The notes beneath the pieces were generated by a model. That model was given only the letters and a program-made list of their open reading frames with translations. It was not told the DNA's origin and made no database searches. 38,243 bases of DNA, from the NCBI GenBank assembly GCA_002787255.1, contig PCWD01000056.1, forward strand, positions 1 to 38,243, read 5' to 3'. Source of the DNA: Parcubacteria group bacterium CG11_big_fil_rev_8_21_14_0_20_39_14 (GTDB lineage: Bacteria > Patescibacteriota > Minisyncoccia > Minisyncoccales > GCA-002787255). The position numbers and the translations under genes are program-made. Positions 5,998-6,238 of the stretch are shown here, one piece after another. Positions within the stretch are counted from its first letter, which is position 1. Every line of letters begins with the position of its first letter.

Positions 5998-6238
5998 AAA
6001 TTAGAAATTGGTTCTTAGAAAATAGAAATTGGTTAGTAGAAATTAGAAAGTTTTGTTTGTCTCTGGTTAAAGGTTTATCGTTAATCGCAGCCCGTTTCGT
6101 TTAAGGTTTATCGTCTTTCGTCTTAACGAGAAACGACTGACATTAGACGAAACGGGCGGCGATAAACCATAAACGAAAAGCGAAATCATTTTCTATTTTC
6201 TATTACTATTTTCCAATTTCCAATAACTATTTTCTATG
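5998..6238. repeat. Large imperfect palindromic spacer: AT-word arms around a GC hairpin core
   Basis: Left arm is ttagaaattggttcttagaaaatagaaattggttagtagaaattagaaag. Right arm is cattttctattttctattactattttccaatttccaataactattttctat. Core pairs cgcagcccgtttcg with cgaaacgggcggcg. Confidence 0.7.

Follow-up and report, generated by a model that had tools for sequence, protein, structure and literature searches.

Nested foldback repeats at the gene junctions of a Parcubacteria genome, probably selfish or slippage-driven rather than regulatory

Introduction

What fills the space between the genes of a bacterium whose genome measures about 1 Mb? The question is raised by a spacer at positions 5998-6238 of a 38,243-nucleotide (nt) stretch of DNA, called the window below, from Parcubacteria group bacterium CG11_big_fil_rev_8_21_14_0_20_39_14. 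In this spacer, short A/T-rich words stand on either side of a GC-rich hairpin core, with the words inverted beyond the core. An earlier note, made from the letters alone, described nearly every spacer of the window as an imperfect palindrome of this kind and proposed a genome-wide system of structured spacers. The spacers are examined here with respect to their structure, their copies elsewhere, their counterparts in relatives, and the signals that they carry. The reading favored here, held to be probable though well short of certain, is that they are accumulated non-autonomous, hairpin-forming foldback DNA of selfish or slippage-driven origin that is tolerated inside operons, and not a dedicated regulatory system.

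The window is one contig of a 979-kb genome (71 contigs, 38% GC, 90.7% complete), which is the sole representative of its own family among the species genomes compared. Relatives identified by MreB and LigA are all metagenome-assembled genomes (MAGs) of the Patescibacteria/Parcubacteria type that originate from groundwater and sediment. The window sequence itself was found in 24 groundwater or aquifer metagenome runs. A search of the literature on the candidate phyla radiation (CPR) for such a spacer architecture found nothing specific.

Structure and Periodicity of the Spacers

Spacers were defined with a simple open reading frame (ORF) caller made for this analysis, and 428 spacers of 60-300 nt formed the fold set. 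Fold scores are z-scores of the minimum free energy (MFE) against dinucleotide shuffles, and length-matched coding segments served as controls. The focal spacer is bounded by the stop codon of gene 6239-6754 on one side and by a cluster of tRNA-Met, tRNA-Met, and tRNA-Asp on the other, all on the minus strand; its left outer arm adjoins the tRNA-Met gene at 5921-5992. The two outer word arrays (Table 1) are inverted relative to each other, and their 28-34-nt arms pair equally well in several registers, at 75-82% complementarity. The core between them is made of repeated GGTTTATCG / CGTTTCG words and contains the GC clamp cgcagcccgtttcg / cgaaacgggcggcg. The 241 nt have an MFE of -87.4 kcal/mol compared with a shuffle mean of -43.8 (z -10.5; 0 of 200 shuffles as good), and the entire spacer folds as one long hairpin with a stem of 115 bp. 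The arrays, the 49-nt arms of the core, and the fold score bear out the first description of this spacer as words, a GC core, and then the inverted words.

The same architecture had been noted at 12 other spacers of the window, and these hold up as well: all 13 beat dinucleotide shuffles on both strands, with z from -2.0 to -11.7. Among the window spacers of 60-300 nt, 23 of 25 have z <= -2 and 18 of 25 have z <= -3. Over the whole genome, the median z of the 428 spacers is -3.2, with 64% below -2, 53% below -3, and 24% below -5. The coding controls have a median of -0.06, with 3.7% below -3 and 0.2% below -5. Thus, the phrase "nearly every spacer" is fair for the window, whereas genome-wide it applies to about half to two thirds.

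The periodicity is equally distinct. Autocorrelation peaks at lags 7, 8, 14, and 21 occur in spacers only. Intergenic tandem arrays number 636, against 94 in a dinucleotide shuffle, and those of period 7 number 159 against 8, which upholds the 7-nt period noted earlier. The commonest words are AAAAATC (46 arrays), AAAAAAT (28), AAAAATT (25), and AAATCCT (23), with dozens of words in all. Pairs of 7/8-nt arrays within 400 nt of each other are inverted in 54 cases (median gap 38 nt) and direct in 34. In other Parcubacteria, structured spacers and 7-nt arrays are less dense (median z -1.7 to -2.5), spacers are shorter, and coding density is 91-96%, compared with 85% here. The earlier note had named two outcomes that would speak against it, namely shuffles with similar scores or a pattern limited to the window. 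Neither arose, since the scores far exceed those of the shuffles and the pattern extends through the genome and, in weaker form, into related Parcubacteria loci.

Is the structure a property of the RNA or of the DNA? In 327 co-directional spacers, sense and antisense fold z-scores are alike (p = 0.93). In raw energy, the sense strand folds better by only 1.0 kcal/mol, a difference that follows G+T content (r = -0.49). The share of G-U among base pairs is 10% for sense and 9% for antisense. Of the 175 co-directional spacers with strong structure, 94 fold better as sense and 80 as antisense. The arms are Watson-Crick inverted repeats at the level of DNA, as expected for inverted duplications or for elements with terminal inverted repeats (TIRs). 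Structure selected only in the sense-strand RNA was considered as a candidate and rejected, because the raw G-U asymmetry is explained by G+T content and vanishes in the z-scores. The widest MFE helix span did not differ among spacer types.

Dispersed Modules

When the spacers were compared with one another by blastn, 361 of 613 matched other spacers, 336 of these in one connected component, and almost all window spacers have partners elsewhere in the genome. The spacers are mosaics of three kinds of dispersed module that are nested in one another: TIR-bearing MITEs (miniature inverted-repeat transposable elements), GC hairpins, and inverted pairs of 7-8-nt arrays. This modular architecture is nested like Russian dolls, with newer material at the apex of older hairpins. 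The focal spacer has inverted arms without a defined TIR. Its core is unique in the genome by blastn among spacers, and its TAGAAAT-type arms match other loci, where they form the inner arms of outer-module elements (83-88% identity over 48-66 nt).

Two MITE families, famA and famB, are represented in the window. Both consist of short non-coding elements bounded by TIRs, with dispersed copies that have sharp ends. The famA element has 24 hits in the genome, in which similarity starts and stops sharply at the TIRs, and many of the copies lie at contig ends. In several copies, another hairpin element, CCCCGGTACTACAAA...TTTGTACTATCGGGG, is inserted at one internal point. The famA flanks are compatible with a TA target site, although not uniform. 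The famB element has five genome copies whose similarity ends at the TIRs, usually beside an ATTTGAT array, and one inverted copy lies in the composite spacer 20744-21082. The inverted copies 12973-13073 and 20751-20851, which are 96% identical over ~135 nt including the flanking arrays, bracket the genes for pilin, pilD, pilC, pilB, and pilT. The order of pilB and pilT relative to the window differs in L113, the best metagenome relative.

An outer module, TAATGCAAAT...ATTCGTAGATTAGCATC, could be aligned at five loci with differing interiors. It has no insert at 22409-22529, heptamer arms at 2370-2569 and on contigs C41 and C69, and heptamer arms plus a 150-nt cluster of GC hairpins on C24. 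ATTCGTAGATTAGCATC abuts an ATG at four of the aligned loci, including those of mreB and the gene after pilM, and also at C1:5728. The sixth copy, on C24, has CATAAT in place of the ATG, and the gene has its own ATG downstream. A word shared by the start codons of mreB and the gene following pilM had been reported, and it is now known from five start codons in all. The 3' arm of the outer module at 22430-22459 (minus strand) reads TTGGCA-N17-TAAAAT 16 nt before the ATG, and the same is seen at C41:9088 and C24:6782. Judging from these motifs, a promoter may travel with the repeat and give a leader of ~9 nt.

Arrays Inside Coding Sequences

The arrays are not confined to spacers. Words within membrane-protein genes had been pointed out in the earlier note, and the corresponding arrays were recovered at 30610-30645, 30925-30954, and 32659-32682; the three fall in two PMT_2 membrane glycosyltransferases. 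In the prepilin peptidase PilD, protein alignment shows that the orthologues of two relatives (L113 and L114) have different word-coded inserts at the same loop that carries the array here. The PilD of L113 (6832-7704) has word-coded segments of the FNFQFSP type at two loops, where this genome has other word-coded inserts. In-frame foldback inserts thus appear, from these alignments, to recur independently at the same tolerant loops.

Comparison With Relatives

L113 shares 75% LigA identity and 55-85% across 17 syntenic genes with the window, whose gene order it keeps; it is too distant for spacer alignment. For 230 orthologous pairs of neighboring genes, spacers have a median of 141 nt in this genome, compared with 18 nt in relatives; this genome has the longer junction in 189 cases and the relative in 16. 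At 22 junctions where relatives have <=20 nt, this genome has 60-212 nt, and the median z of these spacers is -3.65. For instance, murA and mreB are separated by 200 nt here, whereas among 44 relatives the median is 14 nt and the tightest have -4 to +4 nt. For mreB and the glycosyltransferase gene, the distance is 141 nt here, and the tightest among 51 relatives have -4 to +3 nt. The gatC/gatA junction measures -4 to 2 nt in four relatives, and L113 has an unrelated 178-nt hairpin there. The pilM junction is 121 nt here and 26 nt in L113, the junction between the genes at 21083 and 20447 is 339 nt and 26 nt, and the equivalent of 19032-19274 in relatives is 20-35 nt. At the junctions of gatC/gatA and of the gene and tRNA-Met, L113 has word-armed hairpins whose words are entirely different from those here. 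In L113, positions 9920-9979 hold a compact classical terminator (A-tract, GC stem, T-tract) at the same junction as here. Because the orthologous junctions are nearly gap-free or overlapping and the L113 hairpins are unrelated or absent, the palindromes are, on this comparative evidence, derived insertions or expansions inside ancestral operons that turn over quickly.

The comparison also bears on the idea of a system. The genome-wide part of that proposal stands. The word "system" is not supported, as the spacers hold multi-copy TIR elements that are nested in one another at junctions tight or overlapping in relatives. Accumulated repeat DNA fits better than the designed or conserved regulatory layer that the word implies, given that the sequence in L113 is unrelated or absent and that the same arrays are translated inside genes.

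The junction between the gene at 12524 and ligA measures 1479 nt here, an extra gene included, and 60 nt in L113. The extra gene (11240-12343) encodes 367 amino acids with Ig-like/PKD domains and is flanked by the palindromic spacer 11045-11239 and the famA MITE. It was probably inserted, given that L113 has just 60 nt at this place. In the metagenomes, summed contig depth at 8005-8671 reaches 760x, compared with ~20x for the organism, and at 8005-8671 and 14675-15341 the contigs over the (AAAAATC)n and (GAAATCC)n arrays reach 30-40x the organism's own depth, with dozens of different flanks. The excess depth and the many flanks indicate that these heptamer arrays are plentiful in the rest of the groundwater community.

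Terminators, Promoters, and Translation Signals

Are the palindromes punctuation for transcription? A GC stem followed by a sense T-run was found in 19 of the 175 strongly structured co-directional spacers (11%; 2.4 expected by chance), and in 6% on the antisense strand. The proportion is 16-20% in convergent spacers (about 2% expected), and 4 of 51 divergent spacers have such a signal on each strand. With only those 19 passing, the earlier view that the structures are mostly not ordinary terminators is supported. In the focal spacer, the GC clamp is buried deep in the 115-bp stem with no T-run after it, and the spacer does not class as an intrinsic terminator. Promoter-like sites number 19 in the 51 divergent spacers, both strands counted (2.4 expected), and in the 50 convergent spacers one on the plus strand and none on the minus strand. 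In the structured co-directional spacers, 13 of 175 (7%) have one on the sense strand (4.8 expected). Across positions 1-20000 of the window, promoter-like sites were not enriched (52 sites versus 45.9 +/- 6.9 in shuffles). Both detectors thus gave sensible results, and by these tests most palindromic spacers are neither promoters nor terminators. The scarcity of both signals in structured spacers implies that downstream genes are mostly reached by read-through, so that the hairpins are transcribed within polycistronic RNA. An RNase III is encoded in this genome.

Perfect TTGACA-N17-(TG)nTATAAT promoters, with a start codon 0-12 nt past the -10 box, occur across the genome, for instance at C14:12995, C17:4716, C22:440, and C37:4316. 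A Shine-Dalgarno (SD)-like 4-mer precedes only 21% of genes, compared with a background of 10%. Because promoters nearly touch the ATG and SD-like motifs are rare, the sequence suggests that leaderless or very-short-leader mRNAs are frequent.

Other Features of the Window

Almost every gene of the window is encoded on the minus strand, and the gene content includes murA, mreB, gatCA, ligA, a type IV pilus block, dnaX, clpB, and two PMT_2 glycosyltransferases. Rfam covariance models matched five tRNAs at the gathering score and gave zero matches in spacers. The coordinates of the spacers and arrays are collected in Table 1. Several of them share parts with other loci. Parts of 11045-11239 are common to at least 10 other spacers, the octamer foldback of 17098-17285 matches spacer 20355-20446 at 96% identity over 78 nt, and 14-mers of the CCCCGTTAGA hairpin family occur ~25-29 times in the genome. 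Three pilin genes (13587-13682, 14184-14282, and 14835-14921) have near-identical 5' ends and upstream regions of TATTGTTA / AGCAATTT octamers, and these octamer arrays (period 8/16/24) reach into the coding leaders. At 38167-38243, a (GGAGTT)x12.8 hexamer array lies inside an ORF and runs to the contig end; its repeat type is unlike the A/T-rich heptamers.

Table 1. Spacer features and in-gene arrays of the window (TRF, tandem repeat program; paired z-scores as obtained)
Position	Strand	Feature	Architecture and basis	Fold z
5998-6049		Focal spacer, left outer arm	Tandem TAGAAAT-type words, period 7, super-period 21; TRF and direct/inverted repeat pairs	
6073-6174		Focal spacer, core hairpin	Arms 6073-6121 / 6126-6174, 49 nt, 80% complementary, 4-nt loop; inverted-pair search and MFE	
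6188-6237		Focal spacer, right outer arm	ATTTTCT-type word array, inverse of left arm, period 7/21 (TRF); ends at stop codon of 6239-6754	
1221-1361	-	mreB/glycosyltransferase spacer	(AAAATTC)n and (TTTAGGA)n arrays, weak palindrome	-2.7 / -2.0
2370-2569	-	murA/mreB spacer	Outer module TAATGCAAAT...GTAGATTAGCATC abutting ATG, enclosing inverted heptamer arrays	-5.2 / -7.0
6755-6859		Spacer	GTTTCTAT / ATAGAAAT words, minority polarity (T-rich arm first)	
8339-8471	-	gatC/gatA spacer	(AAAATGC)n array, two small GC hairpins, (TTTTGAT)n array	
11045-11239		Palindromic spacer	AAATAAA words, 18-bp AT hairpin, CCCCGCACCAG repeats	-9.6 / -11.3
12344-12486		famA MITE	~142 nt, 19-nt TIRs TAAAGTTGGTGCGTAATAA; alignment with flanks	
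12973-13073		famB MITE	101 nt, 14-nt GC TIRs CCCCGCCCTTTCTA / TAGAAAGGGCGGGG, adjoining ATTTGAT heptamer array	
15248-15279	-	Array inside pilD	(GAAATCC)x4.6, translated VSDFGFRISDF, variable loop of prepilin peptidase PilD	
17098-17285		Spacer	(TTAAAAAC)n / (TTTTTATA)n octamer foldback and GC element	
19032-19274		Spacer	Copies of CCCCGTTAGA... hairpin family	-10.9 / -5.8
20744-21082		Composite spacer, 339 nt	Second famB copy, heptamer array 20858-20890, GC hairpins	
22409-22529	-	pilM/next-gene spacer	Same outer module as murA/mreB spacer, without inner insert	-11.7 / -6.3
24843-24982		Spacer	Two-tier GC hairpin (CCCGCCAAGGCGGG within CCCCG...CGGGG), then inverted AAATTCA / TTTCGAA arrays	
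27275-27476		Spacer	Second copy of 24843-24982 GC core (88% over 76 nt), within TAAATCC-type words	
29805-29992		Palindromic section of divergent spacer	TAATTTCGCG / GCGCGCGAATA words	-5.0 / -4.1
30610-30645	+	Array inside PMT_2 gene	(TCTATTT)x5.1, translated within PMT_2 membrane glycosyltransferase (Pfam)	

Permissive Background and a RAYT-Like Gene

How could such repeats accumulate? In E. coli, genetics has shown that SbcCD destroys long palindromes and that mismatch repair limits slippage. Of 31 genomes drawn from the order, none scored over the cut-off for SbcD (SbcC was not searched), MutS domain V, or Rho, and positives appeared in the control genomes as expected. From these absences, the lineage seems to lack the functions of a hairpin nuclease, of mismatch repair, and of factor-dependent termination. 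By analogy with E. coli, the lineage may both tolerate and generate such repeats through the loss of SbcD and MutS.

Genes of the Y1_Tnp (IS200-like) family are present, one to three each, in 18 of the 31 genomes. In this genome, a single such gene (C41:3239-3892, minus strand) has the HUH motif NHLHYL and scores 38 bits with Pfam Y1_Tnp, above the cut-off. GGACAGTCC palindromes stand on either side of it (3228-3262 and 3900-3925), and 10 of the 11 genome sites of this palindrome are intergenic. The encoded protein, which resembles the REP-associated tyrosine transposase (RAYT), is a candidate mobilizer for the hairpin modules; nothing ties it to the heptamer arrays.

Origin of the Spacers and Competing Explanations

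These observations can be joined into a history in which three processes act together. Word arrays would grow through replication slippage, presumably unchecked in an order without MutS, and long palindromes would persist in the same order for want of the hairpin nuclease SbcD. Complete modules would reach new sites by transposition, a step for which no candidate enzyme was seen other than the single RAYT-like Y1 transposase. In a gap-free ancestral genome, the only survivable landing sites would have been gene junctions, the apexes of existing hairpins, and tolerant protein loops. Such a restriction would yield palindromes that span whole spacers, Russian-doll nesting, and in-frame copies. 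Lying mostly within transcription units, the inserts may be tolerated since the transcript folds back on itself, and they probably act incidentally as RNase III substrates, 3'-end stabilizers, or partial terminators, like REP/BIME or Correia elements. A minority would be genuine intrinsic terminators, needed by an organism without Rho.

Several observations weigh against this account. For famA and famB, the search for a parent transposase was negative, as all-versus-all blastp returned no multi-copy ORFs in the MAG, although MAGs often lose copies of insertion sequences (IS). Four groundwater runs, read over positions 1-20000 of the window, gave no assignable empty site or copy-number variant, with contigs breaking inside the repeats, and no transposition event was observed directly. 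The sole NCBIfam hit of the candidate mobilizer, to the REP-associated tyrosine transposase, scores 44.7 bits against a cut-off of 80, and its GGACAGTCC palindrome has a low copy number. RAYT as the driver was set aside, as the presence of Y1_Tnp shows no visible tracking of the spacer z-scores of relatives. The causal role of SbcD and MutS loss is drawn from E. coli genetics. Furthermore, the A-rich arm comes first in 38 inverted array pairs and the T-rich arm in 10, a polarity that a purely neutral model does not predict and that fits terminator logic; it is visible only in these pairs, as a composition meta-profile along oriented spacers gave no overall A-to-T gradient. Divergent spacers, with a median z of -1.06, are less structured than co-directional (-3.6) and convergent ones (-2.8). 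Finally, the word-armed hairpin kept at the gene-to-tRNA junction of L113 hints at a retained function. The polarity, the weaker divergent structure, and this hairpin keep functional readings alive, whether as partial terminators, as RNA processing or stabilizing elements, or as bridges from stop to start codon.

Could the spacers then be extended bidirectional terminators or insulators, in which an A-rich arm, a GC hairpin, and a U-rich arm at gene ends stop RNA polymerase from either side, with the arrays as elongated A/U-tracts? This is judged unlikely, even with the consistent absence of Rho across the order, the arm polarity, and the strength of structure near gene 3' ends in its favor. 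Arrays that start <=10 nt from a stop codon are also A-rich in 37 cases versus 13, and relatives have compact classical terminators at some of the same junctions, such as the one at L113 9920-9979. The reading has to contend with the small share of spacers with a stem and sense T-run, with the buried clamp of the focal spacer, and with identical arrays inside coding sequences. It also has to contend with inserts that separate genes overlapping or <=20 nt apart in relatives (gatC/gatA and murA/mreB). As a recognizable promoter is present in only about 7% of the structured spacers, efficient termination would silence essential downstream genes. A different functional proposal takes the palindromes as intercistronic cassettes that close on themselves: the base of the hairpin joins stop and start codons, the ribosome re-initiates in a shunt-like manner, and selection keeps operon inserts palindromic. 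The rarity of SD-like 4-mers and the overlapping or coupled state of the ancestral junctions agree with it. So does the geometry of 157 structured co-directional spacers, in which the widest stable helix opens a median of 9 nt after the stop codon and closes 9 nt short of the start codon. Neither gap exceeds 10 nt in 28% of these, compared with 11% of convergent and divergent spacers, a contrast based on 28 control spacers, and the module ending in GTAGATTAGCATC abuts an ATG at five loci (the sixth, on C24, has CATAAT). However, the same geometry is trivial when a palindrome enters a near-zero spacer, start calls from the longest ORF bias the gaps downward, the focal spacer links a stop codon to a tRNA gene rather than to a start codon, and convergent spacers are filled by palindromes too. 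This proposal is accordingly very doubtful.

A broader form of the same thought, that palindromy is a functional requirement because inserts between coupled genes survive only if the transcript zips from stop to start, with lineage-wide cassettes whose spread was enabled by the loss of SbcD and MutS, is considered quite improbable. If it were true, re-initiation across the hairpin base would be a bacterial analogue of ribosome shunting in SD-poor Parcubacteria. The arrays might also bind an oligomeric DNA- or RNA-binding protein, such as a nucleoid organizer, a regulator, or the RAYT-like enzyme, with the palindromes reflecting dimeric binding. The strict 7-nt period, the 14/21-nt super-periods, and the restricted A4-5N2-3 vocabulary would suit such a protein. 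Yet dozens of different words are used, the words differ wholly between orthologous spacers of close relatives, the arms pair equally well in several registers, arrays are translated within genes, and no candidate protein was found; binding of this kind is thus highly improbable.

Relation to Known Repeat Systems

REP sequences stabilize upstream mRNA and act as partial terminators. The REP/BIME and REPIN-RAYT elements of E. coli and Pseudomonas are, like the spacers here, dispersed extragenic GC-rich imperfect palindromes that form mosaics inside operons, and they likewise go with a single-copy Y1 (RAYT-like) gene that has its own flanking palindromes (Bertels and Rainey, 2011; PMC3116915). 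In contrast to these, many unrelated families are present here and their bulk consists of A/T-rich tandem-word arms; no single conserved GC palindrome of 20-40 nt in the tens to hundreds of extragenic copies that define REP/REPIN was found. The flanking palindrome has just 11 copies, and the protein falls below the RAYT equivalog cut-off. In Xanthomonas, each genome holds 70-75 convergent pairs of GGGAATC heptamer arrays, potential stem-loops whose function is given as unknown (Rehm et al., 2015; PMC4692102). Their length and sequence vary between close species, and the type, single or inverted pair, is kept (PMC4692102). Those arrays are likewise intergenic tandem 7-nt units that often occur as two convergent arrays, and another heptanucleotide simple sequence repeat of the kind is the STRR of heterocystous cyanobacteria. 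Unlike the single G-rich, quadruplex-forming unit of Xanthomonas, dozens of A/T-rich units occur here, 8-nt units among them. GC cores, nested MITEs, and in-gene copies also set this genome apart, as does a host of ~1 Mb whose otherwise overlapping junctions are expanded.

The Correia elements of Neisseria, ERIC/IRU, RUP/BOX, and the Rickettsia palindromic elements are also TIR-bearing, non-autonomous, intergenic multi-copy elements of 100-150 bp (PMC3184786). The elements here resemble them in being co-transcribed with their neighbors, in the promoter-like box of the outer module, and in in-frame copies such as those of the Rickettsia elements. They differ in that no parent IS or target-site duplication is established and that nesting at the apex is the rule. 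Intrinsic bidirectional terminators share the GC hairpin with A-rich 5' and T-rich 3' flanks, and true examples exist here, enriched in convergent spacers. In contrast to them, stems reach ~115 bp, GC clamps are often buried without a T-run, 89% of the structured co-directional spacers fail the stem and T-run test, and the elements lie inside ancestral operons. The feature belongs with the selfish bacterial repeats already known (REP, MITE, heptamer), of which it is a striking form with many families; it is not a new kind of system.

Conclusion

What do these spacers mean for the biology of Parcubacteria? The CPR/Patescibacteria are regarded as the most streamlined free-standing cells, and spacers laden with repeats are unexpected among them. 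Non-coding DNA makes up ~15% of this ~1-Mb genome, and much of it consists of nested foldback repeats at junctions where the genes of relatives overlap. Parcubacteria phyla rank at the top among phyla for inverted-repeat density (PMC13155455). The nested foldback anatomy fits this published statistic and gives it a concrete form. In practice, the repeats break assemblies, as contigs end in them, and they corrupt start-codon calls in CPR MAGs. The anatomy is also linked to a testable cause, the order-wide absence of SbcD, MutS, and Rho. Long hairpins inside operons are natural test cases of how such structures affect transcription, RNase III processing, and translational coupling.

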